A stretch of DNA of 64,000 bases from an uncultured bacterium. GTDB lineage: Bacteria > Omnitrophota > Gorgyraeia > Zapsychrales > Aceulaceae. Position 1 is the first letter of the stretch. Every line of letters begins with the position of its first letter. Location: NCBI GenBank assembly GCA_937930175.1, contig CALGLP010000012.1, forward strand, positions 1,130 to 65,129, given 5' to 3'. The translations under genes and the position numbers were made by a program. This document shows positions 3,714 to 64,000 of this stretch, one piece after another. Under the pieces are notes generated by a model that worked only from the letters and a program-made list of their open reading frames with translations, was not told the origin of the DNA and ran no database searches.

Positions 3714-3768
3714 AATGAATTATCAGCGATATTTGTTCATTTAGGAAAGCCAAATCGTAGCATACGGT

Positions 3769-5903: not shown

Positions 5904-5916
5904 TACATTTTCTTTT

Positions 5917-15825: not shown

Positions 15826-16479
15826 TTATTTAGGGTAGCCGACGGGTTGAGTCAGGATAATCCGCTGATGGGACGCAAGTTTCATGGCCTTGACCAAAGC
15901 CTCTTTATCAATCCAGCCTAGCACGACCGTGGCCAAGCCTTCTGCCGCGCAGAAAAGATAAACATTTTGACTAATATAACCTGTATCAACAGCCGCATAT
16001 AACGCCTTGGCATCTTCAGCGCCATCCATGCGTTTTAAATCTGCCACAAAGATAAGGCTTAAAGGCGCATCTTTCACAAAGCCTTGAATACCGACAATAG
16101 GGCGAATATCTTGCGCCAAGATCGGATCAAGTGCCTGCGTTTTTGCATTAAAAAGGTAGAGGCCACTTTTCATCGCCACATAAATATCAATCTCTTGCGC
16201 ATTTTTTGCTGAAGGCGCTGTGCGCATACCTGTTTCTGGACGGTTGATGCCATTGGCTGCCCAAAGAAGATTAGAAATCGTCTGCAGAGACAATTCATCT
16301 GTTTTAAATGCGCGACTTGATTTTCGTTTCTCTAACGCCATCATCAATGTTGTAGACGATGAAAACTTTGGAGCTAAAAGTTCAATCGCCGCCAACTCCT
16401 TCTTTTCCTGAGCCTGCGCGAATAACGAAAATTGACACAAAAGAAAAGTAAAAATAACAAAGACTTTTAATGGTCTCAT
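15826..16479 (-). CDS. Nitroreductase-family / SagB-type dehydrogenase-like protein with N-terminal signal peptide
   Basis: 217 aa with an N-terminal hydrophobic leader (VFVIFTFLLCQFSLFAQAQ). The remainder resembles the nitroreductase fold (...LSLQTISNLLWAANGINR...). Its start overlaps the upstream TPR gene stop by 4 nt. Confidence 0.5.
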   Translation of the reverse strand: MRPLKVFVIFTFLLCQFSLFAQAQEKKELAAIELLAPKFSSSTTLMMALEKRKSSRAFKTDELSLQTISNLLWAANGINRPETGMRTAPSAKNAQEIDIYVAMKSGLYLFNAKTQALDPILAQDIRPIVGIQGFVKDAPLSLIFVADLKRMDGAEDAKALYAAVDTGYISQNVYLFCAAEGLATVVLGWIDKEALVKAMKLASHQRIILTQPVGYPK

Positions 16480-20995: not shown

Positions 20996-21993
20996 GTGTT
21001 AGACAAAACAACTTCACTTAATAATAGCACCAACGCAATAACAAGAAACCATGGAAAAAGTTGGCGATACTCCCGATAACCCGCTTGCTCAATGTCACTT
21101 TTTTCCATCTGGTCAATTTCCCCATAAATAGCTTTCAAGGACTCGGTGTCCATGGCCCAGAAATATTTTCCGTTGGTCGTGGCCGCGATTTCTTTGAGCG
21201 TCGCATCATCAAGATTAATCTCAACATTTTGATACGCCCGACGCCCCCAGAAATCCTGAATGGGAAACGGCACGGGCCCCTTGGAGCCAGCACCAATAGT
21301 ATAAACGCGCACATGCATCGCCTGCGCGATCTTGGCTGCCGCCAGAGGGTCCATTTTGCCTGCATTATTAATGCCATCTGTTAACAAAATAATAATTTTA
21401 CTTTTAGCATGACTTGTCTTTAGGCGCGCCACCGAAGACGCTAGCGCCGACCCGACGGCTGTTCCATCTTCCATCATCCCTAAATTAATGCGACTCAAGT
21501 TGTCCAACAACCACTCCTTGTCAAAGGTCAAAGGACAAACGGTATACGCAAATTGCGAAAACGCCACAAGACCAATACGGTCATTGCCACGCTTCTCAAT
21601 AAAATCACTCACAACACGCTTCACCGCCGTCAAACGATTTGCACGCTGACCATCAATCTTAAAATCCTCGGCCGCCATGCTCCCTGAGGCATCAATGGCC
21701 AAGACAATATCGATCCCTTGCGCCTTATAAGGCGTGGCATCAAGTACTTGCTGGGGGCCTGCCAACGCAACTAAAAAGAAAACAAGCGCTAAGAGCCGCA
21801 ACAGGTAAAGATGATCAGACAACCATACCTTAAAACCGCCCGCAACAGATGTTAACAATAACGAAGTTGAAAATTGCAATGCCGCCTCTTTTCTCTGCCG
21901 ATACCACCAGAGAAAAAAGCCTATCGCCAATGGAATCAAAAATAAGATCCAAAAACTCTTAAACGTGAGATTCACCGGGGCACGTCTCCTCAA
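20974..21993 (-). CDS. batA: vWA domain protein BatA-like
   Basis: N-terminal TM helices, a vWA domain with MIDAS motif (IDASGSMAAEDF...DRIGLVAFSQ...LLTDGINN) and a C-terminal TM. Confidence 0.7.
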   Translation of the reverse strand: MRRRAPVNLTFKSFWILFLIPLAIGFFLWWYRQRKEAALQFSTSLLLTSVAGGFKVWLSDHLYLLRLLALVFFLVALAGPQQVLDATPYKAQGIDIVLAIDASGSMAAEDFKIDGQRANRLTAVKRVVSDFIEKRGNDRIGLVAFSQFAYTVCPLTFDKEWLLDNLSRINLGMMEDGTAVGSALASSVARLKTSHAKSKIIILLTDGINNAGKMDPLAAAKIAQAMHVRVYTIGAGSKGPVPFPIQDFWGRRAYQNVEINLDDATLKEIAATTNGKYFWAMDTESLKAIYGEIDQMEKSDIEQAGYREYRQLFPWFLVIALVLLLSEVVLSNTWLVKIP

Positions 21994-36234: not shown

Positions 36235-36312
36235 TAAAAAACCCCTCTGTCAAACGACAAAGGACAAAAGTCGCCAAACAAAATAAAAGTCGCATCGTAA
36301 AGATCAAGATAG

Positions 36313-36353
36313 CAAAAAGGGGGCTGCGATCTGATCAGATCGCAGCCCCCTTT
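36313..36353 (-). terminator. Rho-independent terminator of giant gene B
   Basis: Perfect palindrome gggggctgcgatctga/tcagatcgcagccccc, followed on the minus strand by UUUUUGCU. It lies 35 nt downstream of the stop at 36386. Confidence 0.55.
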
Positions 36354-36385: not shown

Positions 36386-39300
36386 TCACCCCTTGACCAC
36401 CTCAGCCACCGCAGGCTCCTGTGGTATGTCAAATCCAAGTTGCAACGGCAGATTAATGGGCGTCATCTCAAGGATGATAGGCCTCAAGATATCAATATAA
36501 ATGCTCTCCATATCCTGAAATGGCACCGCGAGCGGCACGCCCTGATCATCGGTCTTGATATTTAACTCTTTATACAATTGAGTCAAGTCCACGCCACCGG
36601 TAGGAGCCGAAGAAACTGAAAAATCAAAAAGTCCTAAAGAAGTAACAAGATCCCACATAAACTGAGAATCTTCAGAGCTTTCGTTCTTAACCATTCCTGC
36701 AAAAATCCTATAATCTTTATCAACGGAAAGGATTAACGCAAACCTTATATTAGTAAACTGTTGCGTATATGCTCTTAAATTATTCCCAAAAGTTTTATGA
36801 CTCTCCGTTGATATATTGCCTTTGACAATAACAGGAACAATAATCTTTGCCTTATTCCCGTCCCTGGCACCTTGGCTGATCTTCCGAAGCTTAGCTTCAA
36901 CCTCCTTTTGCCAAGCCCGCATCTGCCAGTCATCTTTAAAAACTTCCGGATCAATGGTAATGGCTTCTTCAAATAAATCACCATGTTCTTCTTTAAGAGT
37001 TTCTGCAAAACGTGAAGGATCAGGATGCAGAACACAAGCGCTCTGCAAAGAATTTGGATCCTTTACAAGCAAATCATATACTTGCTGAGCAGCCTGTTTT
37101 CTGGCTTTAGTCTTTTTATCATCAACAGCTGTTTCGCGAAGATTGATCAAGGAACGGATAAATTCAGCCGGTACTCCGCCTAAGGCCATAAACTCGCTGG
37201 CCAGAACAACAAAGCGGTCAAAAGAAAACTCCTTTGTGCTATAACGACTATCTTTCTTGTTTAAATCCCTATAAAAATTAACAGTAAAAGAATTTTCCGA
37301 AGGCTTCGCTAAAGCCCAGGACAAGAGATCTTGAATAACTGTCCTTTTGTCACGCAGCAAATCACCATGCATCTCTTTGTCAACGTCCATCATTTTATCC
37401 TTAAGCTCATTAAGCCTGGGGATCAGTTCATCCGTTAGACCTAAGCCTTGTAGCTGCGCTTTGGCAAATCTGACAAAATCGTCCTCGCCAATACCGGAAT
37501 GAGTGCTTTCTGCCAAATCCCGCACCAAGGCTCTGGCCGCAAAGGCATCCAGACGAAGAAGAGCATCCATAAAGTATAAAAAGTTGTCTTCAGTGAATCG
37601 ATACCGATCAACCCCCCCGTTATTAGGACTAAAAATAATATCCTTTGATGTCAGGGCATCTTCAGGCGGCAGATCTCTCGAAAGCACTTCCTTGGCATAT
37701 CTTGCTAAAATCGGCAAAAGACGCTTATCCGTCTTGATCAGGCTGATCAACCTAGTATCAACTATGAACTTCTTATACCGACCGTCTTCATCCTTATTCC
37801 CGCGAAGAATGAGATCCAGATTGGGCCACGTTACCAAAGCATCACCCTGCTCATTAATCGACTTACGCGCATTTGTAGCTGATGAACTGGCCGTGAACTT
37901 GACAACCCAGTCACCACGCATGCTAGATGGCTTAGTCAACGTAACCTTGCCTTCAGAATACTGATAGGTGATGGTGAAAATGTCAGTACAACTCCCGCGA
38001 AAGCTAGGGCCTTCAAAAGTACCCCCTAATTTTGTTATAATAATTGGATTTCCTATATACCTGCCAATCTTATTTAAAACCTGTGTATTGATTACATCGG
38101 GAGTTTCAAACGATCCCGGAAGCTTAAAACTCTCAGCTTTTTCTTTAATACTCGAACTAACAACAGTCGTAACCTTCCAATCCCCTGATTTCTGCGCTGT
38201 AATCGTTCTCTGAGCGTTTTTTAAACCTCGCTGATAAACGACGACCTTGCCCACTAAAATATCGGTCTTTATTGTTTTCCAGCCATTATAGGCATACTCT
38301 TCTGAAATCAGGCGCGCTACCTTTTCCTCGGATAGAACTCTCGAATAGGTCTTAAGCCCAGAGCTGATCTTTTCTGGCGCTGAAACGGCAACAGCAGGAG
38401 CAAATCCATTTTTTGCTAATTCTTTGAGTATGACTTGCCTGATCCATGACGGTTCATCCAGGCCGCGATACTCTGGCGATGACTCAAGAGCGCGATTGAC
38501 GTTTTCGGCGATCTTAAAAGCCATGTCAAAACTGCCTAGAGATTCTTTCGCCTTGCCGTAGAGGTCCTGAAAAGTCACCTCGCGGCCAAAAAGATCTGAA
38601 AGGATCTTCAAGGCATCCTCACCGTTATACGCTTTGGTCATTGACTCAGAAGAAAATCGGTTGACAGAAAATTTTCTTGATCTGACAAGCGACAGGATGC
38701 CTAAGATCGACCAGATTTGACCATCAGCCTCAGGGTCTAAATCCTTGCCCATCAACACCAGAAGCTCATCTCGTGTAAGGGAAAAACCAGGACGAATAAA
38801 TTTAGGATTTGAATCCTTAGAAGCACGATTACGCAAACTCAATCCCAGAGAATCCCTAATCCACTCCTCATAAGACTCTTTATATACTTTTCCATCCGGT
38901 CTAATGTAGACATGCAGGGATTTTAATTCTTGCATCTTGCCTGTGCGATCAACATAGAACCAGGGAGCTGCTTGCTCGCGAAAACGAAACTCGCCAGGAT
39001 AATCACTTTCGATCACAACATTCTCGCCAATTTCAACCCCGCTAAGGTCGACACGGCCACGGATCACGCCAGAAAAAGAGGTTTCACGAAAAGTGATAGA
39101 ACTCTTACTCCTTATGAAATCTATGCTAGGAATCGACACCCTTGGACCCCTTTGCTTCCTTGCTTTTTCTTTTTTCTTATCCGCATTGGTTGAGGTGCCA
39201 AATTCTTCAGATGAATTATCCAAGGTGGTGGTCAACAAATACCACTCCTCATGCTCCCGGAACACAAGATAGGTCAATTGACCGTCCTGAACACCGATCC

Positions 39301-41917
39301 GTGTTTGATCGCTAGAGATCCGGATTTGCGCAGGAAGAATCTTAAATTTTCTCGAAAGAAATACGACCACGGCGAAAACATCTTTTCCCGATAACTCAGA
39401 AACCTCAAATGGTCCCGAAATCACCTGCGCTTTCGGCTCTGTATCGCGCAGCACAGAGGGAACGCTCGGAGACGCCTTGGCCTGCTGAAACGGAATCGGA
39501 GCTCCAAAAGAATCCTTATAAGAAACGACAACAAATCGTGGACCTGCCATCTCCACACCCATAACGGAACTATCTTGGAACGTGATCCATAATCCAGGGA
39601 TCTCGACAGGAAGAGGTTTATTTTCAGAGAAAATTTCCAAGACTTTATAAGGCGAAAGACTCATAGGAAAAATACCCTTAGGTCTTTTATTTACTGCCTC
39701 TGCAATAATCGCCGCCACTTTTTCAGGCGTGAGAGTAAGCGATAAATAAGGAATCTTTGCCGACTCTGTCGGCAGAACAGGCGTTGTTTGATTCGTGGGA
39801 CTTGGTGACTGGGTAAAATCAACATCCTGATTATTCTTGTCGACAACGCCTGAGATCTTCCAACTATTCTTAGAAAAATCCCTTGTAATCAAAATCTTCA
39901 AATCACCATACATCAAGGTAATGGAAACAATTTCTTCCAGCTTGTGAGCACGAGGATCATACTCTTCCAAGAAGAAATTTCCATGAGGAACGTTACGCAC
40001 CACAAACGTCTTTTCAGGGTTTCCATACCCTAAAGCTTCATTTATCTGCGCGGTAATCTCTTCAACAGAAAGCTTGGCGTCTAAATGCGGGATCTTGATA
40101 TTGGAAGATGTCTTGACGACTACTGCTGGACGGGCTGGTCGCTGTGGTAAATGATTAATTTCTACAACTTTCCATTGCGTATTGTCTTCATTTAAACTTT
40201 TTACTTTAACATAACTCGATCCGCCAAAATGGATCTCAACATAAATAATGTCATCGCTGCCATCAACCTCCATCCACATGCTTTCTATTGATTTCCATTC
40301 AGCCCACTCAAGATCCCTTTGTTCACCATCTGAAAAATACACAACTACTTTATCAATCATGCGTCCAGCGTATGTCTTCCACACATCATTTAGCATGGTC
40401 TCGCCAGACCCATTAATAATTTGATTGATCGCTAAACCAGACGATATACGTTTTTTACTCTTAAACGTATACACAACCCACTGGTCGGTGAGATTCTTTA
40501 ACTCTTTATAAGATCCACGCGGGGCAACGGCAACAACGCGGAAGTTACCGGAAATTATTTCGACTGGGCTTAGCGGCGCATTACCGGTCGTAATTTTAGC
40601 TTTTTTGCGATCAATGCTTTGATTATACTTTTTTAGAAGATACTTCCTAATTCGGTCTTGCTTCCATACTTTCGCGCCTTTCTCATCAATAAAATACCGC
40701 TTCTTTCTTTCCCATGGCGAGGTCGATCTTTGGCGAGGCTTAATCCGAGACTTTTTGTTAGACAGGACTGAGCTTATTTTAATATTGCCGCCTCCCTTGC
40801 CAACAATCGTTTCTATTTGACCAGACGTTGGAAAATTGGTCTGCGTTAAATTAATCTCAACCAATGGAATACCCCCGGAGAAATATTTTCGGGCAACATT
40901 ACGCTTGGCTTGAGCGTCGTACTCTGCACGGATCAAATTATACGCCCCTTGTTTGTAAGCAGTTAAATACGAATCATAAATCTTTTGCTTCACAGCCTTA
41001 TCCGTCAAATCAATACCGTTTATTTTGGATTTGTTGACATAGGCTTGACCTAAAAGACTATCTTTTAAATTCTTCTTAAACCATGTTCCTAAGATAAGGG
41101 CATTATAGGCCTGACGCAAGGCGGCAAAATGTTTTCCATTATTCACTTCTTTTTCAAGTTCGGGGATCACAATGTCGCGGACGATTTGGGAGGCAAGTTC
41201 TTGGCTCTTGGCTCTTGGCTCATTGGTTTTGCTATCAGCTATGAGCGATGAGCTCTGAGCTTTTTGCAGCGCGAGGTAATCCTCTTCCAGCATCACCTTT
41301 AAGGACGCCTCGGCCACAAAGGCCATGTTGCCATAGCGATACACAACCGCCTTGTCCGGCATGATCCATACCTTATTAAAAGTATCAACCGGGATCTGCG
41401 TGGTTTGATAGGTTTCATAGGCCTTTTTGTAAACCTTATCCCAAAACTTTTTTCCAAGATCGTTTTCAGGATGGATCATCGATGCGGTAAATTGTTTTAA
41501 GACATAGTCCTGCGCGAGCAAATCGCGGCCCAAATCCGTTTGTGCCAAGGCATCAGGAATGATCCGGTCTTTTTCATACGGAGAGAGATTGACCCACAAG
41601 TCTTTTTCAGGGATCGTCAGAGACGCCAAGAAATATTTGATCATCTTCTCCGATTCCTTCTTTAAAGCCTCGCCTTGAAGATTATCATCGCCATCATTCA
41701 CAATAAAATCAAACTGAAACGGGCTATCCGAGTGGACCTCAACACCTGTCATCATGGCCGGATGAAAGACTGGAGTTGGCGCAAGCAGAGTGCCAGGTGC
41801 GGGCAAGTTGAGCGCTTGAGCAAATCCAGAGGATGGCAAAATAAGATTGACAACAAAACAAACACAGACAAGGCAACGAATCGCCTTTGAGGACCAGTTT
41901 TTTCTAAATGTAAACAT
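36386..41917 (-). CDS. Giant secreted protein B (about 1843 aa from internal Met; ORF-track version 1888 aa to 42052) with family N-domain and C-terminal motif
   Basis: The internal Met at 41917 gives a good signal peptide (MFTFRKNWSSKAIRCLVCVCFVVNLILPSSGFAQA). Conserved N-domain blocks are present (FDFIVNDGDD, YFLASLT, WVNLSPYEKDRI, VDTFNKVWIMPDKA, LKVMLEEDYLA, LEKEVNNGK). The C-terminus is GGVDL...PIILEMTPINLPLQLG. No enzyme motif was recognised in the central 1400 aa. Confidence 0.7.
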   Translation of the reverse strand: MFTFRKNWSSKAIRCLVCVCFVVNLILPSSGFAQALNLPAPGTLLAPTPVFHPAMMTGVEVHSDSPFQFDFIVNDGDDNLQGEALKKESEKMIKYFLASLTIPEKDLWVNLSPYEKDRIIPDALAQTDLGRDLLAQDYVLKQFTASMIHPENDLGKKFWDKVYKKAYETYQTTQIPVDTFNKVWIMPDKAVVYRYGNMAFVAEASLKVMLEEDYLALQKAQSSSLIADSKTNEPRAKSQELASQIVRDIVIPELEKEVNNGKHFAALRQAYNALILGTWFKKNLKDSLLGQAYVNKSKINGIDLTDKAVKQKIYDSYLTAYKQGAYNLIRAEYDAQAKRNVARKYFSGGIPLVEINLTQTNFPTSGQIETIVGKGGGNIKISSVLSNKKSRIKPRQRSTSPWERKKRYFIDEKGAKVWKQDRIRKYLLKKYNQSIDRKKAKITTGNAPLSPVEIISGNFRVVAVAPRGSYKELKNLTDQWVVYTFKSKKRISSGLAINQIINGSGETMLNDVWKTYAGRMIDKVVVYFSDGEQRDLEWAEWKSIESMWMEVDGSDDIIYVEIHFGGSSYVKVKSLNEDNTQWKVVEINHLPQRPARPAVVVKTSSNIKIPHLDAKLSVEEITAQINEALGYGNPEKTFVVRNVPHGNFFLEEYDPRAHKLEEIVSITLMYGDLKILITRDFSKNSWKISGVVDKNNQDVDFTQSPSPTNQTTPVLPTESAKIPYLSLTLTPEKVAAIIAEAVNKRPKGIFPMSLSPYKVLEIFSENKPLPVEIPGLWITFQDSSVMGVEMAGPRFVVVSYKDSFGAPIPFQQAKASPSVPSVLRDTEPKAQVISGPFEVSELSGKDVFAVVVFLSRKFKILPAQIRISSDQTRIGVQDGQLTYLVFREHEEWYLLTTTLDNSSEEFGTSTNADKKKEKARKQRGPRVSIPSIDFIRSKSSITFRETSFSGVIRGRVDLSGVEIGENVVIESDYPGEFRFREQAAPWFYVDRTGKMQELKSLHVYIRPDGKVYKESYEEWIRDSLGLSLRNRASKDSNPKFIRPGFSLTRDELLVLMGKDLDPEADGQIWSILGILSLVRSRKFSVNRFSSESMTKAYNGEDALKILSDLFGREVTFQDLYGKAKESLGSFDMAFKIAENVNRALESSPEYRGLDEPSWIRQVILKELAKNGFAPAVAVSAPEKISSGLKTYSRVLSEEKVARLISEEYAYNGWKTIKTDILVGKVVVYQRGLKNAQRTITAQKSGDWKVTTVVSSSIKEKAESFKLPGSFETPDVINTQVLNKIGRYIGNPIIITKLGGTFEGPSFRGSCTDIFTITYQYSEGKVTLTKPSSMRGDWVVKFTASSSATNARKSINEQGDALVTWPNLDLILRGNKDEDGRYKKFIVDTRLISLIKTDKRLLPILARYAKEVLSRDLPPEDALTSKDIIFSPNNGGVDRYRFTEDNFLYFMDALLRLDAFAARALVRDLAESTHSGIGEDDFVRFAKAQLQGLGLTDELIPRLNELKDKMMDVDKEMHGDLLRDKRTVIQDLLSWALAKPSENSFTVNFYRDLNKKDSRYSTKEFSFDRFVVLASEFMALGGVPAEFIRSLINLRETAVDDKKTKARKQAAQQVYDLLVKDPNSLQSACVLHPDPSRFAETLKEEHGDLFEEAITIDPEVFKDDWQMRAWQKEVEAKLRKISQGARDGNKAKIIVPVIVKGNISTESHKTFGNNLRAYTQQFTNIRFALILSVDKDYRIFAGMVKNESSEDSQFMWDLVTSLGLFDFSVSSAPTGGVDLTQLYKELNIKTDDQGVPLAVPFQDMESIYIDILRPIILEMTPINLPLQLGFDIPQEPAVAEVVKG

Positions 41918-42182
41918 TATGTGGTATTTCCGTTTCTCCGTGGCGTGAGAAAAAGGTGGAGCCCAACAACTAAAGTCATCCGCCCTTCTAAGAAAAGGGC
42001 GAACATCCGCCGAAGCACCAATTACACCATTTTCGTATTCCTCCACGGACAAGCCCGTGGTATCCTGCGTAGGCGGATGGAGCTAAGATTTTAGCTTCAG
42101 GTTTTTTAAAAATATATTTTTTGTTGACTTTGTAAAAGGATAGCACTGGATTAAAGCTTTGACAAGGGCGCGAGGGACAATG

Positions 42183-55001: not shown

Positions 55002-56180
55002 TTATTTCTCCAAAATTTCTCTAACTTTCACCACAACATGATCTAACTCGCCTAAATCCTGCTCGTCCGGAACAAACGGGATATATTTACCTTCAGCTAA
55101 AAGTTCAAAACCAGCATCCGCAATGGACGTTTCTAGCTCTTTAAACCCAATCGTGGACCACCCATAAGAGCCAAACGTCCAGGCATGTTTATTTTTGGTC
55201 TTCAACCCCTTGAGGTACATCAAAAGCCCTGCCATGGTCGGCAACATACGATTATTGAGGATCGGTGTTCCAAAAAGAACAACTTTAGAAAGCATCACAT
55301 CCGTGACAATGTCCGACATATGCGCGGCTTGCAAATTGACAAGCTTGGTTTGGATGCCTTCCTTGTCTAAGCGATCATAGAGCCTTAGGGCCATTTCTTT
55401 AGTTGAATTCCACATGGTGTCATAAATGATCAAAACTTTCTTATCCGCTTCATAACGCGCCCACTTGCCATAGGCTTTTAAAATCGTTGCCAAATCTTTT
55501 GGGGTGCGCCAGATCAGTCCATGCGAGGGACAAATCATCTTAATCGACAGCTTTTCAGCTGCCTCCAACGCCCTTAAAACTTGTGCCCCGTAAGGCATCA
55601 CAATATTGGCATAATATTTAGCCGCATCTTCAAAAACAATATCCATGCCCAATTCATCGGCGTAGCGCTCCACCGATGCCCGATGCTGACCAAAAGCATC
55701 ATTGGAAAATAAAATGTTGTCCTGCGGTGAATAAGTGGCCATGGAATCCGGCCAATGCACCATGGGCATGAGCAAAAATTTTAATGTCCGCTTGCCAATG
55801 TTAAGCTCGTCCCCGGTTTGCACGACCTTAAAATTCCAATCCTTCTTGAAATGACGCTTCAAGCCCTCTGCCCCTTTGGGTGAACACACCACCTGCGCCT
55901 TAGGGCAAATCGCGAGCAGCTTGTCAATCGACCCCGAATGGTCCATTTCTGTATGGTTGGAAATAATATATTCGATCTTAGCAGGATCAATGACGTCCCG
56001 AATGTGGGCAAGCATTTCATCAACGCCGTAATATTTCACGGTATCAATGAGTGTGGGCTTCTCGTCTACAATAAGGTAGGCATTGTACGTGGAGCCTGCA
56101 GGCGTGTCATAGCCATGGAAATTACGCAGATCCCAGTCAATGTAGCCAGTCCAATAAATATCAGGGGCAATGGTATGCAT
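55002..56180 (-). CDS. Flavodiiron protein (rubredoxin:oxygen/NO oxidoreductase, FprA/ROO type)
   Basis: 392 aa with a metallo-beta-lactamase-like diiron domain (HTEMDHSG) and a C-terminal flavodoxin domain (KVLIIYDTMWNSTKEMA). Confidence 0.85.
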   Translation of the reverse strand: MHTIAPDIYWTGYIDWDLRNFHGYDTPAGSTYNAYLIVDEKPTLIDTVKYYGVDEMLAHIRDVIDPAKIEYIISNHTEMDHSGSIDKLLAICPKAQVVCSPKGAEGLKRHFKKDWNFKVVQTGDELNIGKRTLKFLLMPMVHWPDSMATYSPQDNILFSNDAFGQHRASVERYADELGMDIVFEDAAKYYANIVMPYGAQVLRALEAAEKLSIKMICPSHGLIWRTPKDLATILKAYGKWARYEADKKVLIIYDTMWNSTKEMALRLYDRLDKEGIQTKLVNLQAAHMSDIVTDVMLSKVVLFGTPILNNRMLPTMAGLLMYLKGLKTKNKHAWTFGSYGWSTIGFKELETSIADAGFELLAEGKYIPFVPDEQDLGELDHVVVKVREILEK

Positions 56181-56198
56181 AAATTTTAAATTCTTTAA

Positions 56199-56346
56199 AG
56201 AAAATAGAAATTAGAAGATGGAAGATAGAAAATGATCTTAGAACGCGGTAGCTACTTCGTGTTAAAATCAAAGAAGATCAAGGATGCTTTTCTATTTTTT
56301 CTTTTTCTAACTTCTAATTTCCAACTTCTATCTTCTAATTTCTTTA
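56199..56346. repeat. Intergenic palindromic 'tagaag' element between the rubredoxin and flavodiiron genes
   Basis: The arms agaaaatagaaattagaagatggaagatagaaaa (56199-56232) and ttttctattttttctttttctaacttctaatttccaacttctatcttctaatttct (56290-56345) are mutually complementary. An inner gatctt...aagatc hairpin is nested inside. The element is non-coding here. Confidence 0.55.
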
Positions 56347-56348
56347 TT

Positions 56349-56510
56349 TTACTCTACTACCTCAAAATCCTCTTTCCCTACCCCGCACTCTGGACAAACC
56401 CAGGTGCTGGGAATGGCCTCAAAAGCTGTGCCAGGGGCAATACCGCCATCTGGATCTCCTTTAGCCGGGTCATAAACATAACCGCAAACGGTACATTTGT
56501 ATTTTTTCAT
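56349..56510 (-). CDS. rub: Rubredoxin (53 aa; missed by the ORF track)
   Basis: Translation [53 protein letters not shown], with two CxxCG knuckles. A strong GGAGG RBS lies 8 nt upstream. It is immediately upstream of the flavodiiron gene. Confidence 0.85.
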
Positions 56511-56960
56511 AAACAGCCTCCTTTAAATGAGTCCGCCATTGCTTCAGTGGCGGACGAATTTATCCAGGTTTAACTGCGTTTAAGCGGTTAAATCTGGACT
56601 TCCTTACATTTTTTAAATCTTCCCCACAATTTAATTGGCGTGGGGGCCAGTCAGGAATCGTTATTATATAGGAATAAAGGAATGGGTCAAGGAATTTCTT
56701 GCAGAGCATTGCCTCACATTAAATGTTAACGAGTCCTCCGAGATCGTCTTCTTTGGCAACAGTCTTGAAAGATCACCAAGGGTTGGAAGGCGTGCTGGCG
56801 TTTTCCTCTCGTGAGTTTCCGAAGTCGTCTGTTCTCATTCATTTTGCACTGGGGAAAACAGATGACGAAGGAATGTTTGAGCGAAGGATAATGCCAGTAC
56901 GCCTCATATAAACAAGGACTTGTTCAGTAACCTTTATTAATAAGTTAACGGCCGGAGGAT

Positions 56961-59900
56961 TTACAACTTGCTCAGCTCCAGACCTTCTGCCTCCTCTTCG
57001 AATACACCTAAAAGAAGGGGCAGGTTCGTCACCGGTGCGACATTGATGATGACAGGATAGAGTCCGTCGACCTGAAGATCCTCAAAATCTTGATTGTTGA
57101 GATCAAATGGGATCGCACTACTCCCCTCTCCCTTGCGCTCAATATTTAGATTCGCCAGATTAAAATCCACACCGCCCTTGATCTTAACTGAAGAAAGTGC
57201 CTCATCTGTGATGGTGCCTTGCTCTAGCCCTGTGGTGACACCCTTAAGATTTTCTTCTAAATCACTATATGAGGTGAACCCCAAAGCATTCGCCATCATT
57301 ACCTTCTTGAATCCTGATAGCTCTTCGCCAGTAAGCTCAAGATAATTCAGAATGACATCCCAAACCGCTTTTTTTGATTTCACCGTCAAATATTTAAGAG
57401 GAATATCCTGCGAAAATGTTACCTCGCCAGGAGATTCATCCTTGCGAAAGCCCGCCTCTTCAAGTTCTTTCTTAGCAAAAATAAGATTAATGCCGCCAAA
57501 ACTGTTGAGAAGGCGCACCCGCGCCATCTGTCCCTGACCCCCAGAGTTAACAAAAATCTTGTCTTTTGACCCTAAAAGCTTTCCTTGGCTTTCAAAAATG
57601 ATCTTATATAAAGCTTCCGACGTTGTAACATGGCCCCAAGCCTCTTCAATACCCGAATAATTCTCAGCCATCCATCCATTAACATCAAAAAACGTCCTAT
57701 AATTTCTTTGTGCAATCTTCTTAAGCGCTACATCTTTTTCTATACCTGGCTGAAGCCTGTCCATTTTATCAATAGCTAATTCTACGGATAACGACTTCTC
57801 AGAAGGAATGTGGGAAGCATTAGCAACAATCCAAGCTCTTGCCGAAACGATGAATTTAAGGGCCTCTTCTGCGCCCATTTGCTTAACAAGACTATTTTCA
57901 ATTTCATATCGAATATCATCCCAAGTAGCATTTGCAAATACATCATCCACTCCCTCCACCCCAAAATCTTTTTTAACTGCCTCGGGTAGGTCGCCTTCTG
58001 CCAGCTCCTCTTTTTCCTTTCCAGCGCTTGCGCCATCATAGCGCAAATATTTCACAGCCCCTGATTTATCAAGAAGCATGACATAAAGTTTTTTCTCAAA
58101 AACTGTAAAATTTACTACGCCGACAAGAAGATAGGGTTTTCGTCCATCAGATAAGGACAGCGTCCCTGGAGCGTCTTCGCGGCCAGCAGGAAAGATCTGA
58201 ATCCCAGGTAAAATAGCGGGATTTGAATCGATATACTCCATTTTTTCTTCGATGGAAAGATACTCTGCCCTGGTAATATTCGCGCGAGGAGCATTAGTAA
58301 AGATTTGCAGAATCCGTGCGTTGATCTGATACCACTCCATCGGCACAAGAGGCGAATTGGCTTTGGCCGCGCCAGATGATGGCAAAGGCTTCTTGGTATC
58401 AACAGGCTTAGAGGGACTTTCCTTCTTTATTTCCCCGCCATATCCAAGCATATGTATGGCATAATAGGCTTCTGGAAAAACATAGTTCATGGCTTCAAAC
58501 CCTACGGGAGGCACAAATTTATTATTTCGCTGAAATTGTGGCCAATGGGTATCAACAATATACGGCATGCCAGCGCCACCCACGTCCACGTAAACCTTCA
58601 AAACTGCATGGGGCACAGCTTGTTTATTGCCGGAATCTTGAAAATCAAAGGGAACGGAAAAATCTTTCTTCTCAAGATCCCAATTGCCGCGGTTTCCGCC
58701 GAGGATATCAAAAAGATCATTGCGAGCAATCTGGCAATTCCTGTCCAAATCATTGCGATGTTTTCTGGCAAGGCCCATAGCCATATCACGCAAAACCGGC
58801 AAGGTCAAGGTAGAACTGACGACCTTCTGCTTCAGTAGTTCATTCTTAAAATTTAAAGTATAAAAAAGAAAATCACGCTTGGCCTCCTGCTTCTCACGAA
58901 TGAGCGGCATGCCATTCTTGAATCCGCCTGAGAACTCAACGGGATAGGCCCCCAGAAACTCAACGGCGCGAATCATGTTCATGTCATCTGTCTCTACCGG
59001 TAAAGCGCTCAACCCTTGAGAAAGCTTACTGTAAAACATAAAACCTTCAACCTTGTTCAAAATATTTTCTTTTTTAAATCCTGCCTTCTCCATTTGCTGG
59101 AGAATAAGAGCCTTCATGAATAAAACATACGAACCTGTCTCAGTCGTGTCGATAAAGCGGATCCCTTTATCTTCGATTTCCTGCCAAGAAATATTAAGCG
59201 TCTCAAAATATTTTGAGAATCCTTCTGCTGCCTTCTGAATACCTGCTTGGTGCTCATTAATCAATTTCGTACGCGGTGATTCGAGGATGCGGCCTTCCGT
59301 GAATGCATTAAAGATAGCAAAGAATTCTTCCTCAAACTTCGCAAATCTATCCTCGGGAACACGGTCCCTCTCCTTCAGATCCATCCGCAGTTTTGCCTCA
59401 GTAATCAGGTAATGAATCGCGCTGGGAAGGGTGTTGGTTTTTTGTCCTCCGGCAAGACTCTCAAAAACCTTGTTGGAGGCAAAAAAACCTTTTTTCTCTT
59501 TTTCCCCTGCCAAATACAGCAAAGCCTCATCTCGAAAGAAATAAATATTATACGCATCGGTGTTTGCAGATTTTCTCTGAATAAAGCGGGTAAAGTTAGA
59601 AGCCGTCTTTGCGGTGTCCCTTATAGTTTCCAAATCATGCCACGCTGGAATCTTCGAAATCCCCATGGCATCCGCAATTTCTTTCATTTCAGCGTCGGTT
59701 ACTGGCCTGTCAATGGTGGCAGAAATGGCATCAACCCATGCGACAAAATCAGAAAACTGATCTCCGATAGGATCTTGATAAAGCTTTCTTATTTTTTCAA
59801 CAAGCGTCGAGGCGGAGGAATTGGTTGTGCCAGGCTGGTCTGCGGGCGCAGCTTGCGCTTGTTCTTCTTCGATGAATTCCTTCACATTCTCTAAAACGAC

Positions 59901-62225
59901 AGTGCGCATCATTTCATAAGTTGGAGCGCTTTGGCCATTTTTCGCTCTTAAGTCCTTATACTGATCAAATGTCAGTCCATACTGACGCATAAAAGAACCT
60001 TCATATCCCTCAAACTCTGAAATCTTGTCGAAACCTTCAGCAAGTCCATCGGCAATATCACTCTTGATGCGATCCATTATGCTTTTGAGAGGTTCAATAT
60101 CTTGCGAACCAAATTCTTTCCCCACCTTTCTATAAAAAATATCATAAATCGACTGCAAAGATTGCCTTAGCTCAAGATTGCTTTCGCTTGCGATATAATC
60201 TCGCAATTCGTCACCGTTTAAGACAAATTGCCTAAAAAATTCCGCTAAAAACTGGTTTGGCCCATACTCTCTAAGATAGGTATTGCGAATAAGGCTTTTT
60301 GTGCTGAAATCCAAGATATTTTCTTCATCACTTGGAAGCAACACGCGATACTCCTTGACGGCCTTGATCTTGTTGTAAAATTCAACAGCGCTTGCGCGAT
60401 CCTCAGAAGAAAAATGGCTCTCAATGCTATGACCAATTTCATGCAAAATCAAACGTGCCAATCCAAACAAATCCCAATACGCAATGCCCAGAGAATCAAT
60501 CGTTACCATTTTCTCTTCGATGTCATAATTCCCAACATCTGGCCGAGCCATTCGAGGAACAGGCATGCCGAACAAAAACTTAGTAATAATTTGCCGGCCT
60601 CTTTCTCCCTCCTTCAAATCTTTCTTATCGCCATAGTCTAAAACCTCTCCAGGGACCAGGGACAACAAGAAAGCAATAAAATTTCTTAAATCTGTCTTGC
60701 CTGCAGGAAACACTTTATAGAAAAACTCAATATTGTGCTCTCTGAACACATCGGGTATTTCTTGATTTACTGCTTTGCTTGGACTACCTTCAGGTGGTTC
60801 TTTGCCTTTAGAATCTTGAAACTTAAATTTAACGTTTTTAAAAACAGCTTTAATTTTTCTTACAAATGCTCCATCTCTTATTCGCTGGATAGCTACCTTG
60901 ATATTGCTCGAGTTAAAACCCCCTGAAAAATACTTACGCGGGATGGCCTTTTTGGCATAGGGGTCATACTCGACCTTCATCATGTTGCAGACACCTTTTT
61001 TGTACGCAGCGAGGTATTGCTGGTAAATAAAATTGACATCAGAAATTAGAGGTTGGAGGTTAGAAGCTAGAAAAAGAACTGAAGATTGAGAATCGATGTT
61101 GGAAGTTAGATTTTTTTCGTTGTTTTTTCTATCTTCTCCCTTCTCCCTTCTATCTTCTATCCTCAATCCTTCCACCTTTCTCTTATCGCTATACACTTTA
61201 TTCAAAATAGAATCCTTGAGCGTTTCCTTAAACCACGTAGCCAAAATCAGCGAATGATAGATCTGGCGCAAATTCGCGAAATTCTTGCCCTCATTGACTT
61301 CCTTTTCCAGGGCCGGGATAAAGACTTCACGAACGATACTAGAAGAGATATCAGAAGTTAGAGGTTGGAGATTAGAAGTTAGAAGAGGCGAAGAAGAATC
61401 TTTTGTGTTGTTTGGATTTGCCTCTTCTCCCTTCTCCCCTCTATCTTCTAACTTCTTTTCTGAATTCTTCTGCTCTGCTAAATAATCACTTTCCAGCATG
61501 ACTTTCAATCGTGATTCCACAATAAACGCCTTGTCGCCATTTTCATAAACAACCGCCTTTTGCGGCATGATCCACACCTTATTAAAGGTATCCACCGGAA
61601 CATTGGTTGTGCCGTATTGTTCAAAGGCTTTTTTGTAAACCTTGGCCCAGAATTCTTTGCCCAAATCAGAATCGGGGTTGATCAAGGATGCGGTGATCTG
61701 CTTTAAAAGATAATCTTGCGCCAACAGATCGCGGCCCATCTCCGTCTGGCCAAAGCCTTCGGGCACGATGCGGTCTTTTTCATAGGGCGAGAGATTGACC
61801 CATAGGTCGTCTTCGGGCATGGTCAAGGACGCGAGAAAATATTTCACAAGCCTTTCTGTTTCTTTGTTAAACGCTTCGCCCTCGAGCTTCGCGTCACCCA
61901 CATCAACAATAAAATCAAATTCAAAAGGATTCGCGGCATTGGTCCTGATCCCGCGCAAGATCGTCGGAACAAAGCCTAGGCTCAACGCCACAGCTGTACC
62001 TGGCGCTGGCAGCCCTAAGGAACTTTGGGCATAGCTTAGGGATGGCAAAAGGGTTTGGGTGAGAAAAATGAGGCAGACAGAAATGGAAATAATCTTTTTG
62101 GAATGAGTAGAAAGTAGAGAGTAGAAAGTAGAGAGTAGAAAACGAAAAGAACGACAAAAAAGAAGGCAAAATTCCTTTTGCGATCTTTGCGTCAGTTGTT
62201 TTATAATATCTTTTTCTCTGTTCAT
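56961..62225 (-). CDS. Giant secreted protein C (1754 aa) with family N-domain, HEIGH zincin-like domain and C-terminal motif
   Basis: Conserved N-domain blocks are present (FEFDFIVDVGD, YFLASLTMPEDDLWVNLSPYEKDRI, VDTFNKVWIMPQKA, LKVMLESDYLA, LEKEVNEGKNF, CNMMKVEYDPY). A HExxH motif sits in LARLILHEIGHSIESH. The C-terminus is GGVDFNLANLN...YPVIINVAPVTNLPLLLGVFEEE. The first 45 codons lie inside an intergenic-looking palindrome, so the exact start is uncertain. Confidence 0.7.
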   Translation of the reverse strand: MNREKDIIKQLTQRSQKEFCLLFCRSFRFLLSTFYSLLSTHSKKIISISVCLIFLTQTLLPSLSYAQSSLGLPAPGTAVALSLGFVPTILRGIRTNAANPFEFDFIVDVGDAKLEGEAFNKETERLVKYFLASLTMPEDDLWVNLSPYEKDRIVPEGFGQTEMGRDLLAQDYLLKQITASLINPDSDLGKEFWAKVYKKAFEQYGTTNVPVDTFNKVWIMPQKAVVYENGDKAFIVESRLKVMLESDYLAEQKNSEKKLEDRGEKGEEANPNNTKDSSSPLLTSNLQPLTSDISSSIVREVFIPALEKEVNEGKNFANLRQIYHSLILATWFKETLKDSILNKVYSDKRKVEGLRIEDRREKGEDRKNNEKNLTSNIDSQSSVLFLASNLQPLISDVNFIYQQYLAAYKKGVCNMMKVEYDPYAKKAIPRKYFSGGFNSSNIKVAIQRIRDGAFVRKIKAVFKNVKFKFQDSKGKEPPEGSPSKAVNQEIPDVFREHNIEFFYKVFPAGKTDLRNFIAFLLSLVPGEVLDYGDKKDLKEGERGRQIITKFLFGMPVPRMARPDVGNYDIEEKMVTIDSLGIAYWDLFGLARLILHEIGHSIESHFSSEDRASAVEFYNKIKAVKEYRVLLPSDEENILDFSTKSLIRNTYLREYGPNQFLAEFFRQFVLNGDELRDYIASESNLELRQSLQSIYDIFYRKVGKEFGSQDIEPLKSIMDRIKSDIADGLAEGFDKISEFEGYEGSFMRQYGLTFDQYKDLRAKNGQSAPTYEMMRTVVLENVKEFIEEEQAQAAPADQPGTTNSSASTLVEKIRKLYQDPIGDQFSDFVAWVDAISATIDRPVTDAEMKEIADAMGISKIPAWHDLETIRDTAKTASNFTRFIQRKSANTDAYNIYFFRDEALLYLAGEKEKKGFFASNKVFESLAGGQKTNTLPSAIHYLITEAKLRMDLKERDRVPEDRFAKFEEEFFAIFNAFTEGRILESPRTKLINEHQAGIQKAAEGFSKYFETLNISWQEIEDKGIRFIDTTETGSYVLFMKALILQQMEKAGFKKENILNKVEGFMFYSKLSQGLSALPVETDDMNMIRAVEFLGAYPVEFSGGFKNGMPLIREKQEAKRDFLFYTLNFKNELLKQKVVSSTLTLPVLRDMAMGLARKHRNDLDRNCQIARNDLFDILGGNRGNWDLEKKDFSVPFDFQDSGNKQAVPHAVLKVYVDVGGAGMPYIVDTHWPQFQRNNKFVPPVGFEAMNYVFPEAYYAIHMLGYGGEIKKESPSKPVDTKKPLPSSGAAKANSPLVPMEWYQINARILQIFTNAPRANITRAEYLSIEEKMEYIDSNPAILPGIQIFPAGREDAPGTLSLSDGRKPYLLVGVVNFTVFEKKLYVMLLDKSGAVKYLRYDGASAGKEKEELAEGDLPEAVKKDFGVEGVDDVFANATWDDIRYEIENSLVKQMGAEEALKFIVSARAWIVANASHIPSEKSLSVELAIDKMDRLQPGIEKDVALKKIAQRNYRTFFDVNGWMAENYSGIEEAWGHVTTSEALYKIIFESQGKLLGSKDKIFVNSGGQGQMARVRLLNSFGGINLIFAKKELEEAGFRKDESPGEVTFSQDIPLKYLTVKSKKAVWDVILNYLELTGEELSGFKKVMMANALGFTSYSDLEENLKGVTTGLEQGTITDEALSSVKIKGGVDFNLANLNIERKGEGSSAIPFDLNNQDFEDLQVDGLYPVIINVAPVTNLPLLLGVFEEEAEGLELSKL
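61041..61180. repeat. In-frame palindromic 'tagaag/ggagg' insertion within giant gene C (insertion 2)
   Basis: agaaattagaggttggaggttagaagctag ... ttctatcttctcccttctcccttctatcttctatcc. It encodes EDRREKGEDRKNNEKNLTSNIDSQSS...ASNLQPLISD between the conserved KRKVEGL and IYQQYL blocks, and is absent in paralog B. Confidence 0.5.
61338..61462. repeat. In-frame palindromic 'tagaag' insertion within giant gene C (insertion 1)
   Basis: agaagttagaggttggagattagaagttagaagaggcgaagaag ... cctcttctcccttctcccctctatcttctaacttct. It encodes EDRGEKGEEANPNN...LLTSNLQPLTSDISSS, the same site as A insertion 1. Confidence 0.5.
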
Positions 62226-62290
62226 CTCTTTCTCTCTATCTACTCTATCTACTCTACCTACTCTATTTACTTTCTACTTTTTCTTTTCCC
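62098..62290. repeat. Large imperfect inverted repeat (gagtagaaagtaga units) between giant genes D and C
   Basis: The left arm (62104-62140) is gagtagaaagtagagagtagaaagtagagagtagaaaa. The right arm (62226-62275) is tctctctatctactctatctactctacctactctatttactttctac, complementary to the left. The 85-nt loop contains TTGCGA-17-TTATAAT on the plus strand. Confidence 0.55.
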
Positions 62291-62292
62291 TT

Positions 62293-64000
62293 CTAACTTC
62301 CAACTTCTAACTTCTCTTTTTCTCCAAGCCCCAGCAGCCCCATAAAGTCGGTCACAGGCGTTACATTAATGATGATCGGCACGAGGCCTTCAAAATGGTC
62401 AGAAAAAATAGGGCTAGAGGAATTAAGGATGAAAAGATTTGGGTGATCAGATTGTGTCATGTTTAACGTGTTAGGTGTTAGGTTGTTTTGGCCTTCCGTG
62501 ACACTTGACTCTTGAAACTTTTCACTATCCTTTATCCCTTGACCCCTTTGCCCCTCTACTCCTTTTACTTTTACATTCATATTCTTAGCGTTAAAATCGA
62601 TTCCTCCTTTGGTGCCACTTGTATTCGCTGACGATGTAAGAAGCTTATCAATATGAATAATAAATTCCGTAAGAACTAAGCCATTATCGGTTCTTGTTTT
62701 TTGAATAGCGCACGGAGCCTTATCCATCAAGGTCGTCACACTCTCAGGGATCTGATCGCCACCCGTATCCGGGGACAATACCGTAGACTTTAAAAAAACG
62801 ATTTTCTTCCCATCAGCAGAAAGGGATCCCTCCCGAAGATCGATCTTGTAACGAACAGGCCCTGCAACACCCCCAGCCTGCTCGTAAAGATCCTGAATGG
62901 CCCCAGCCAACAAGACAGCATCTTTTTCCTCAAAATGCTTGCCATCTAAAAGAGCCGGCATCTCCTGCGCAACAAGACCATTCACAGATCTTATGGATAA
63001 ACTGCTAAATAACGTATTGGTCAGATTATTTTCTTCAACTACATTCATTACCTCTGGACTTAGATTACTATCGATAACTTTTTTATCAAGATTAGTCCTC
63101 ACCTCAATTAACCCAAAAATAGAGCTTAGTGGGTCCTCGCGAACGGAGAATTTAATCGCATCCTCCATTGCCTGCGGAAGCATCGCATGAATAAAAACAC
63201 CAGTTTGATTGATGCCTAAGGTCTTAGCGTCAAAATCCTCCTGATCGCCTTCTGAGCTCAGAGGAGATTTTAAATTAACAGTACGAACAATACCATCCTT
63301 TGCGACAGATATAAAGATCGCAGGAAAAGCCGTATCACCTAAAACAGCAGTACCCCTGCCTTCTTTACCCATATTGTCGGAATTAAGCGTGTCGTCTTTC
63401 TGCACTTTTCCTTTTCGGTATGACCCATCAGAAAAAATATCCTTTAAGTTTGTAACAATTTCGCCTTGTTCATCAAAAACACCCGGACCATAATCAAAAG
63501 CAAAAATCTCTATTCCCCCTGGCACCTCTTTTAAAAGCACAAGGCCTTGGCCTCTTGCATGTTGAATCATGTTTTCCGTGATACCATCAACAACCGCTCT
63601 CTGGTCTGGGGACATGCTTATTAGAGCATCGTCATCTAATATAATTTCACGATTTTCAACAACAACAAGCATAAATCCGCTGTCACGCGCAAATTGCTTG
63701 GCGCTCTCAAATGATTCTGGCCCCTTTTTCCACAAATCAGCCATTTGCTGGACAACGGACGACGAAACAGGAGTCTTTTCTTGTTCACGTACAACATTGT
63801 TCGACGAAACCTTCTGCCTCCTCCACTTCCCGCCATCTTCACTTCGCTCAAAAACCATTTCCTGTTTGCTAGGGGCACCAAGGCCCTCCACGTCATCATA
63901 AAATTGGAAACGGATCTCCTCAATTCGCCCATTTCTCACTTTTCGCGTGAGTCGAACAGACTGAAACCCTTTTGTAGGCATAAGCTTTGTCCCTGTCCAG
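62293..64000 (-). CDS. Giant-protein family member D, 3' portion (reading frame stays open to the window edge; N-terminus not in window)
   Basis: The C-terminus GGIDFNAKNMNV...LVPIIINVTPVTDFMGLLGLGEKEKLEVGS is nearly identical to protein A's. The last roughly 60 nt are about 85-90% identical to the 3' end of gene A. There is no stop upstream of the listed Met, so the gene probably extends beyond 64000. Confidence 0.7.
   Translation of the reverse strand, partial: WTGTKLMPTKGFQSVRLTRKVRNGRIEEIRFQFYDDVEGLGAPSKQEMVFERSEDGGKWRRQKVSSNNVVREQEKTPVSSSVVQQMADLWKKGPESFESAKQFARDSGFMLVVVENREIILDDDALISMSPDQRAVVDGITENMIQHARGQGLVLLKEVPGGIEIFAFDYGPGVFDEQGEIVTNLKDIFSDGSYRKGKVQKDDTLNSDNMGKEGRGTAVLGDTAFPAIFISVAKDGIVRTVNLKSPLSSEGDQEDFDAKTLGINQTGVFIHAMLPQAMEDAIKFSVREDPLSSIFGLIEVRTNLDKKVIDSNLSPEVMNVVEENNLTNTLFSSLSIRSVNGLVAQEMPALLDGKHFEEKDAVLLAGAIQDLYEQAGGVAGPVRYKIDLREGSLSADGKKIVFLKSTVLSPDTGGDQIPESVTTLMDKAPCAIQKTRTDNGLVLTEFIIHIDKLLTSSANTSGTKGGIDFNAKNMNVKVKGVEGQRGQGIKDSEKFQESSVTEGQNNLTPNTLNMTQSDHPNLFILNSSSPIFSDHFEGLVPIIINVTPVTDFMGLLGLGEKEKLEVGS

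Follow-up and report, generated by a model that had tools for sequence, protein, structure and literature searches.

The imperfect hairpin between the genes for rubredoxin (rd) and an FprA-type flavodiiron protein (fdp) in this Omnitrophota genome has arms built of tandem degenerate heptamers, and foldbacks of the same kind recur in the window (the whole 64-kb stretch of DNA that was analysed) and at the rd-fdp junction of relatives, where the heptamer unit changes from lineage to lineage. The explanation favoured here, held as a whole with moderate confidence, is that the hairpin is a copy of a genome-wide family of heptamer-array foldbacks, that it originated at the DNA level, and that it affects rd and fdp as a stem-loop similar to REP elements. 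In each copy of this family, an unrelated centre would be flanked by inverted runs of degenerate AGAAGWT units, about five on either side.

The rd gene (56349-56510, minus strand) codes for 53 aa and is the first gene of the predicted operon, preceded by an AGGAGG Shine-Dalgarno sequence. It was found in the ORF list and assigned to Pfam PF00301; the Pfam assignments of the operon genes were taken from identical contigs, with PF00301 coming from the identical gene in locus L002. The fdp gene (55002-56180, minus strand; ORF list, Pfam, and homologues) codes for 392 aa, and homologues of its product assign the window to Candidatus Omnitrophota. Downstream of rd-fdp are genes for a PNPOx-like protein, a Fur/PerR-family regulator, an FNR-like reductase, and rubrerythrin, and this gene order represents conserved synteny. 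All operon genes are coded on the minus strand, so that the order in the transcript is rd, hairpin, fdp. An earlier reading of the window, made from the sequence only, had placed both genes on one strand with a 168-nt gap, and this is the case, the strand being minus. The spacer (56181-56348) has a GC content of 26%. Its last part before the fdp start codon is an AU-rich leader (aaagaatttaaaattt before ATG; 56181-56195, minus strand) without a Shine-Dalgarno motif. A sigma70-like promoter, TTGACC-16-TATAAT (11/12, by consensus match only), is located upstream of rd at 56663-56690 on the minus strand, and a scan of 55900-57100 revealed no promoter-like or terminator-like site in the spacer. As a promoter-like site precedes rd and the spacer has none, the hairpin is most probably transcribed inside an rd-fdp mRNA; co-transcription is what we infer from this arrangement. 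A search of 55900-57100 with Rfam 15 covariance models gave no match at E≤1. A plus-strand ORF of 113 aa (56232-56573) crosses the hairpin antisense to rubredoxin; it is almost certainly spurious and can mislead gene callers.

In the repeat search, the arms of the imperfect palindrome were found at 56196-56230 and 56312-56346; they are 35 nt long, 83% complementary, and 81 nt apart. The main stem has about 31 bp in stacks of 8, 6, 6, 5, and 6 bp, with mismatches of 1-2 nt between them and hence a period of 7 nt. It starts 2 nt past the rd stop codon and ends 15 nt ahead of the fdp ATG. The hairpin is thus present at the place given in the sequence-only reading, and the calculation of folding energy named there as a check gave -39.3 kcal/mol (z -3.7) for the spacer as sense (minus-strand) RNA and -42.8 kcal/mol (z -4.7) for the antisense; none of 200 dinucleotide shuffles of the 168-nt spacer folded as stably on either strand. 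The arm sequence quoted in that reading is also correct and equals the reverse complement of 56308-56343. A nested gatctt/aagatc stem-loop had been described as well; complementarity between 56234-56240 and 56275-56281 is present, but in the minimum-energy fold 56233-56240 pairs with 56263-56270.

Both arms are tandem arrays of degenerate heptamers of the unit AGAAGWT in inverted orientation, about five units each, and Tandem Repeats Finder (TRF) reported period 7 with 5.0 copies at 56199-56233 and 5.6 copies at 56305-56343. The arm that is 5' in the transcript (56305-56346, minus strand; repeat search, TRF, and folding) has about 5.6 heptamers, AGAAATT, AGAAGAT, AGAAGTT, GGAAATT, AGAAGTT, and AGAAAAA, and places UAG in all three frames. 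The 3' arm (56196-56233, minus strand; TRF and folding) is the complement of about five heptamers, which on the plus strand read AGAAAAT, AGAAATT, AGAAGAT, GGAAGAT, and AGAAAAT. Between them is a unique centre of 71 nt (56234-56304, minus strand; similarity search and folding) with small nested stems, among them gatctt/aagatc. No other copy of this centre was found in the window or in the other fetched loci (about 2 Mb), the same strain excepted. In two to three independent assemblies of the same strain the rd-fdp spacer is identical, and no length variation was seen at the window copy. No direct repeats that could represent a target-site duplication flank positions 56196 and 56346; the comparison with the diverged empty site of L006 is not base-precise.

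Heptamer arrays are frequent in the window, as 18 arrays of period 7 were detected and 0-1 for each other period from 4 to 11. A motif derived from the arm has 10 matches, with 0.02 expected. The hairpin is, as the sequence-only reading had it, a non-coding copy of a repeat also present in giant genes. Besides the rd-fdp copy, six further AGAAGWT sites were identified in the 64 kb, including three inside ORFs and two at ORF ends. The search for other copies thus succeeded within the window, and what the copies have in common is the arms alone, never the centre. In these other copies the arms are separated by about 35-100 nt, and the purine arm comes first in all four inverted pairs of the window.

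The two sites at ORF ends are single arrays (motif search and TRF, minus strand). One of them (5913-5940) makes up the last codons and the stop of giant gene A (5917-15081), read as KLEVGS-stop, and the other (62289-62317) is the KLEVGS-stop of the gene ending at 62293. The sequence-only reading had reported such ends for two giant genes; they are real at these two genes, but giant gene 56961-62225, upstream of rd, ends otherwise and carries internal copies. The same reading had suggested that the hairpin derives from, or recombines with, the 3' ends of giant genes. Those ends are simply two more AGAAGWT sites that share arms alone with the hairpin, and such a derivation is not needed, since similar arrays occur at the 3' ends of ordinary genes in many unrelated metagenomic contigs.

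The three sites within ORFs are in-frame foldbacks on the minus strand, recognized by repeat search and folding. One is located within giant gene A (14284-14412, -31 kcal/mol) and two within giant gene 56961-62225 (site 1 at 61350-61460, -39.7 kcal/mol, and site 2 at 61038-61165). The foldback at 61038-61165 is missing from paralogue C and from the orthologue in L005, and both of these homologues lack the peptide inserts that result from the internal repeats of giant genes A and D, or have shorter ones. In all three coding foldbacks, GAG (or GGG) stands in the unit where TAG would be in frame, and TAGs in the other frames have remained. By its pattern, the change from TAG to GAG is a footprint of selection holding the ORF open after insertion of the repeat. 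With inserts absent or shorter in homologues and the in-frame TAG replaced by GAG, the coding copies look like tolerated insertions of the AGAAGWT repeat.

Arrays with other units were also observed in the window. A foldback of GTAGAGT/ACTCTAC units at 62100-62278 (-57.9 kcal/mol) spans the start of giant gene 56961-62225; its 5' arm is in the 5' UTR, its loop holds the ribosome-binding region, the ATG, and about 35 codons, and its 3' arm encodes FRFLLSTFYSLLSTHS. With this layout the foldback may control how the giant gene is translated, by sequestering or gating initiation. Giant gene A contains an in-frame AGTATCT/AGATACT hairpin (13930-14095) of the unit family that fills the rd-fdp spacer in L003, L088, and L089, so several unit families coexist in one genome and are common to different species. 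Two different arrays adjoin each other at 41195-41263 within giant gene 36386-42052, TCTTGGC in four copies and then GCTATGA in four copies. Giant gene C is followed by a GC-rich terminator with a 17-bp stem and a U5 tail (36314-36350, minus strand), and beyond it, in the region 36243-36350, is an array of GTCAAAG/GACAAAG units (36248-36272). The same unit was found again at 21518-21542, in or near an ordinary gene, and in L010 at 15860-15893.

The comparison covered about 48 lineages of Omnitrophota in which rd immediately precedes fdp, and most of them have 2-46 nt between the two genes. In L006, for example, the spacer is 46 nt long and has a GAGG Shine-Dalgarno motif and no hairpin. Expanded gaps carry long hairpins with tandem-heptamer arms and lineage-specific units. 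Hairpins are present in the window, L003, L088, L089, L005, L090, L091, L010, L012, L053, L040, L034, and L054. The unit is AGTATYT in L003, L088, and L089, TTTAGGA in L005 and L090, TAAAGGG in L091, TTCGGTA in L040, CGACTAA in L034, ACGTGAT in L053, and GGCGCAA in L054 (69% GC); L010 and L012 have units other than these families. As in the window, the copies in L054 share the arms alone. Eleven period-7 arrays with units GGCGCAA, GGGGCAA, and CCGGGGG were counted in 20 kb of L054, and its hairpins, one of them at the rd-fdp junction, range from -60 to -130 kcal/mol; the label Methanobacteriota of this locus looks doubtful because of its Omnitrophota-like rd-fdp context.

In a neighbor-joining (NJ) tree of the flavodiiron proteins, the window was classified together with L003, L088, L089, L008, L091, L005, and L090 in one clade. 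Seven of the eight members have a hairpin, and four different unit families are represented among them. The remaining hairpins are nested among relatives with short gaps, which implies at least five further gains outside this clade. Compared across these sequences, the hairpin of the window is a derived state at an ancestrally very short rd-fdp junction. The clade member without a full hairpin, L008, which is sister to L088, has a 15-nt mini-palindrome, AGTAAAA-A-TTTTACT, which looks like a collapsed remnant of the AGTATTT-family hairpin of L088. A remnant of this kind in a hairpin-free spacer points to loss by deletion and not to primary absence. The mini-palindrome is retained in the hairpin-free 46-nt spacer recorded for L008/L006 at 3701-3746.

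Stems of at least 22 pairs were counted at 8 of 48 rd-fdp junctions and at 19 of 664 other co-directional junctions of the same loci, an enrichment (odds ratio 6.8, p=2e-4) that rests on one fixed stem criterion and crude ORF calls and ignores kinship. The ORF-based census undercounts hairpins with larger internal loops, and the spurious plus-strand ORF had displaced rd in it. In L003, L088, and L089 the arms differ in the number and order of units, and pairing is maintained via the shared unit consensus and not via compensatory substitutions. As the number and order of units differ, a score of base-pair covariation has no clear meaning in these three hairpins.

Hairpins with heptamer arms were also found at many other co-directional junctions of Omnitrophota, typically right behind the stop codon. 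In 1.36 Mb of related loci there are 86 arrays of period 7, compared with 17 of period 6 and 9 of period 8. A metagenome scan with 3.5 AGAARWT units matched at least 120 contigs, with GC content from 25 to 69%. Among the matches listed, 47 of 120 arrays lie no more than 25 nt from the 3' end of an ORF, 37 of these 47 with the purine strand as the sense strand; for about 15% of the arrays listed, an inverted partner was found no more than 225 nt away, the purine arm being first in 11 cases and second in two. Some other units (L031 7967-7991 and 20790-20818; L005 6462-6492; L215 1431-1500) resemble known repeats: (CCCTAAA)n/TTTAGGG is the plant-type telomere unit, and TTGGTCA-like units resemble cyanobacterial STRR2, both probably by coincidence.

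The matched contig L099 belongs to Anaerolineae according to its PGK homologues. A hairpin of TAGAAGT/TGGAAGT units, which is the AGAAGTT family, fills its gap-pgk junction, and the array's first TAG serves as stop codon of the GAPDH gene. L213, with 97% PGK identity to the L099 locus, has an identical gap-pgk spacer of 155 nt. In L212 (98% PGK identity) the 3' arm is shorter by exactly 70 nt, or ten units (L212 1416-1500 versus L213 1346-1500), a difference which is direct evidence of unit-number instability. The hairpin consists of AAGACGG units in L214 (94% PGK identity) and of CAGTCAA units in L215 (90% PGK identity), so it is kept in all five relatives. As judged from both comparisons, the unrelated junctions rd-fdp and gap-pgk in two phyla, a hairpin is retained in place, its units are exchanged, and its length varies by multiples of seven.

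Selection on the sense RNA should, via G-U pairs, stabilise the sense over the antisense strand. In 25 hairpins no such bias was detected, with 13 more stable as sense and 12 as antisense (Wilcoxon p=0.66), and in the window hairpin the antisense is slightly more stable. Nothing in these 25 hairpins, therefore, points to selection on RNA, and the effect on expression could be neutral or mildly harmful. Given the similarity of arms alone, the equal stability of both strands, and the pairing via unit consensus, we read the palindrome as a DNA-level product (slippage by 7 nt together with inverted duplication, conversion, or re-insertion) and not as a tuned RNA. Slippage has been proposed as the source of heptamer repeats generally (PMC4679880). 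In the window family, arrays would lengthen and shorten through slippage in 7-nt steps, inverted duplication, conversion, or re-insertion would keep both arms of a locus in one unit family, and the unit family at a given junction would be swapped over short evolutionary distances.

Several kinds of known repeats are similar in part. REPs are conserved palindromes of about 35 nt that contain a GTAG motif and are associated with RAYT transposases. The window hairpin resembles REP/BIME elements in being a repeated extragenic palindrome between co-transcribed genes, as far as co-transcription is predicted here, and it differs from REP and REPIN elements in that its arms are heptamer arrays without a conserved GTAG, the copies are alike in unit consensus alone, and the sequence changes from one relative to the next. 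Palindromic repeats of 100-150 bp are also represented by the Rickettsia palindromic elements (RPE) and by further MITEs (Correia/NEMIS); they occur between genes and in frame within ORFs, where they add peptide segments and can supply stop codons; their copies are homologous along the whole length. The window repeat likewise forms in-frame inserts that homologues of the ORFs lack, but its copies are alike in the tandem 7-mer arms alone and the centre is not homologous.

The closest description is that of Geobacter metallireducens (Aklujkar et al. 2009, PMC2700814), where class 2/3 'global regulator binding sites' and GGGACCG x4 elements are pairs of sites on opposite strands, each of 3-5 tandem heptanucleotides, at variable distance. 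These pairs have many copies and are located both within genes and between co-transcribed ones (e.g., proB-proA); the authors took them to bind an unknown global regulator (PMC2700814). The window repeat, too, consists of 7-nt tandem arrays of at least three units, paired in inverted orientation and both intergenic and intragenic. The unit sequence and phylum are different, and the Geobacter pairs come without comparative data, whereas the present comparison shows that units turn over between orthologous junctions and that copies occur in frame within coding sequence. The window element is thus a new member of a poorly understood kind of repeat, for which the Geobacter paired heptanucleotide sites are the closest description. 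Long simple sequence repeats of 7 nt form another such group, for which MacGregor (2015, PMC4679880, citing Mrazek 2007) names the cyanobacterial STRR and the TAACTGA repeats of Beggiatoaceae, Cyanobacteria, and Bacteroidetes. They have in common with the window arrays the heptamer as favoured period, a mostly intergenic location near gene boundaries, stop codons in the units that constrain orientation within ORFs, and a sporadic cross-phylum distribution. In contrast, nearly all of them are direct repeats (169 direct sets versus one indirect in BOGUAY; PMC4679880) and are located upstream of start codons, whereas the window arrays are inverted pairs that abut stop codons and form long hairpins. 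Exact strings of AGAAGTT repeats were not found in the literature search, and the papers found on Omnitrophota giant genes make no mention of hairpins, palindromes, or heptamers.

The most serious rival explanation is that the hairpin is neutral or selfish junk, a by-product of heptamer slippage, of palindrome-forming replication errors, or of a mobilising activity, with no meaningful effect on rd or fdp. The equal stability of sense and antisense agrees with this, as do the repeats inside coding regions and at gene ends, where tuning of an operon makes no sense, the gaps of 2-46 nt in most Omnitrophota, and the loss in L008. A stem of about 31 bp and -39 kcal/mol that starts 2 nt past a stop codon and replaces a Shine-Dalgarno sequence would hardly be silent for coupling or decay, however, and the retention of the hairpin in seven of eight clade members and five of five Anaerolineae gap-pgk relatives despite complete unit turnover, together with the approximately 7-fold enrichment at the rd-fdp junction, makes junk a rather unlikely account. 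Insertion as a unit of a classical non-autonomous transposable element (MITE, RPE, or REPIN-like) with transposase in trans is less probable still, and we regard it as doubtful. Several copies share inverted arms, the in-frame coding insertions resemble those of RPE, the purine arm is first in four of four window pairs and in 11 of 13 among the metagenome matches listed, and different families succeed one another at one site, all of which would suit such an element. Its copies, though, would not be expected to have unrelated centres and arms of differing length and unit order, no target-site duplication was recognized, a non-exhaustive look revealed no transposase beside any copy, and length changes in exact multiples of 7 point to slippage.

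The heptamers might instead be an array of binding sites for a DNA- or RNA-binding protein, either a nucleoid protein of IHF/HU type, as suggested for Geobacter, or a (UAG-N4)n RNA regulator, with the hairpin as a secondary outcome. The regular 7-nt phasing, the conservation of TAG/TGG as part of the unit in the window and in L003, L088, and L089 in the same phase to the rd stop, and the corresponding interpretation of the Geobacter sites (PMC2700814) speak for it, but unit sequences that are wholly different among close relatives would be intolerable for a conserved binding protein, TAG/CTA is weakly enriched (23 of 72 units, about 16 expected), and no candidate protein emerged, so this reading is very improbable. 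A HutP-like (UAG-N4)n site or three-frame stop module has no more than the rank of a minor rival, as TAG/CTA units are only 1.5-fold over expectation and many families are without TAG. An integron attC site was rejected as well, since there are no R''/R' cores (RYYYAAC ... GTTRRRY) at the arm ends and the locus has conserved synteny and is not a cassette array. A partial intrinsic terminator, or attenuator, between rd and fdp, as proposed in the sequence-only reading, has the slightest chance of all. It would be a long stem-loop within an operon whose 3' arm is U-rich in the transcript; yet the scan of 55900-57100 gave no terminator-like site, the stem is AT-rich with periodic mismatches and is not followed by a U-tract, and the genome has terminators of the canonical GC-rich type with a U5 tail (36314-36350).

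Under the favoured explanation, a heptamer foldback of DNA-level origin that acts as a REP-like stem-loop, the effect on the operon would follow from position and stability. Within an rd-fdp transcript the hairpin must be expected to fold into a stem-loop (about 31 bp, -39 kcal/mol). It would do away with the close spacing and the Shine-Dalgarno sequence through which relatives couple fdp to rd, and would serve as a REP-like 3' barrier or processing point that favours rd over fdp mRNA. The malE-malF intergenic structure of E. coli is a protective 3' structure in a differentially decaying operon (PMC5927463), and the window hairpin is likewise a stable structure directly 3' of the upstream gene, here rd, within a predicted operon. 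As with REP/BIME elements and malE-malF, a block of 3'-5' exonucleases that raises upstream mRNA over downstream mRNA would be expected. By this analogy the hairpin probably uncouples expression of rd and fdp and probably shields rd mRNA from 3' exonucleases, and message and protein of rd would be expected to exceed those of fdp. A role as mRNA stabiliser or processing site, which the sequence-only reading had considered as well, is plausible and the most reasonable functional reading; a role in setting the Rd:FDP ratio is what we infer from it.

A more far-reaching reading, offered tentatively and with little probability assigned to it, takes heptamer-array foldbacks as a distinct cross-phylum class of repeats (Omnitrophota, Chloroflexota, Geobacter, and others) that arise from a dedicated or strongly biased process and serve as general retuners of operon stoichiometry. 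One candidate process is repeat addition onto both 3' ends of a break, which would account for the polarity of unit first and complement second, for the similarity of arms alone, and for unrelated centres; the other is hairpin-templated conversion. The foldbacks would settle preferentially just behind stop codons in operons and replace one another there quickly in evolutionary terms, and would be exapted as peptide linkers in giant proteins. If this is true, uncultured bacteria may have a general, unrecognised way to retune the stoichiometry of operons.

The locus is ordinary once the repeat family is recognized, and the noteworthy part is the recurrent occupation of junctions, the rapid turnover of units, and the in-frame copies in giant proteins. 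The similarity of arms alone and the replacement of units argue for a mechanism other than classical MITE transposition. For annotation it matters that the odd low-complexity segments and KLEVGS-type ends of Omnitrophota giant proteins would be repeat insertions and not functional domains. Operon junctions in uncultured phyla repeatedly hold hairpins of 7-nt repeats, and this makes a testable pattern out of what was a single odd case. Should such hairpins work in the manner of malE-malF, they would be a cheap and evolvable means to set the ratio of a small electron carrier (rubredoxin), or of GAPDH, to its partner enzyme.
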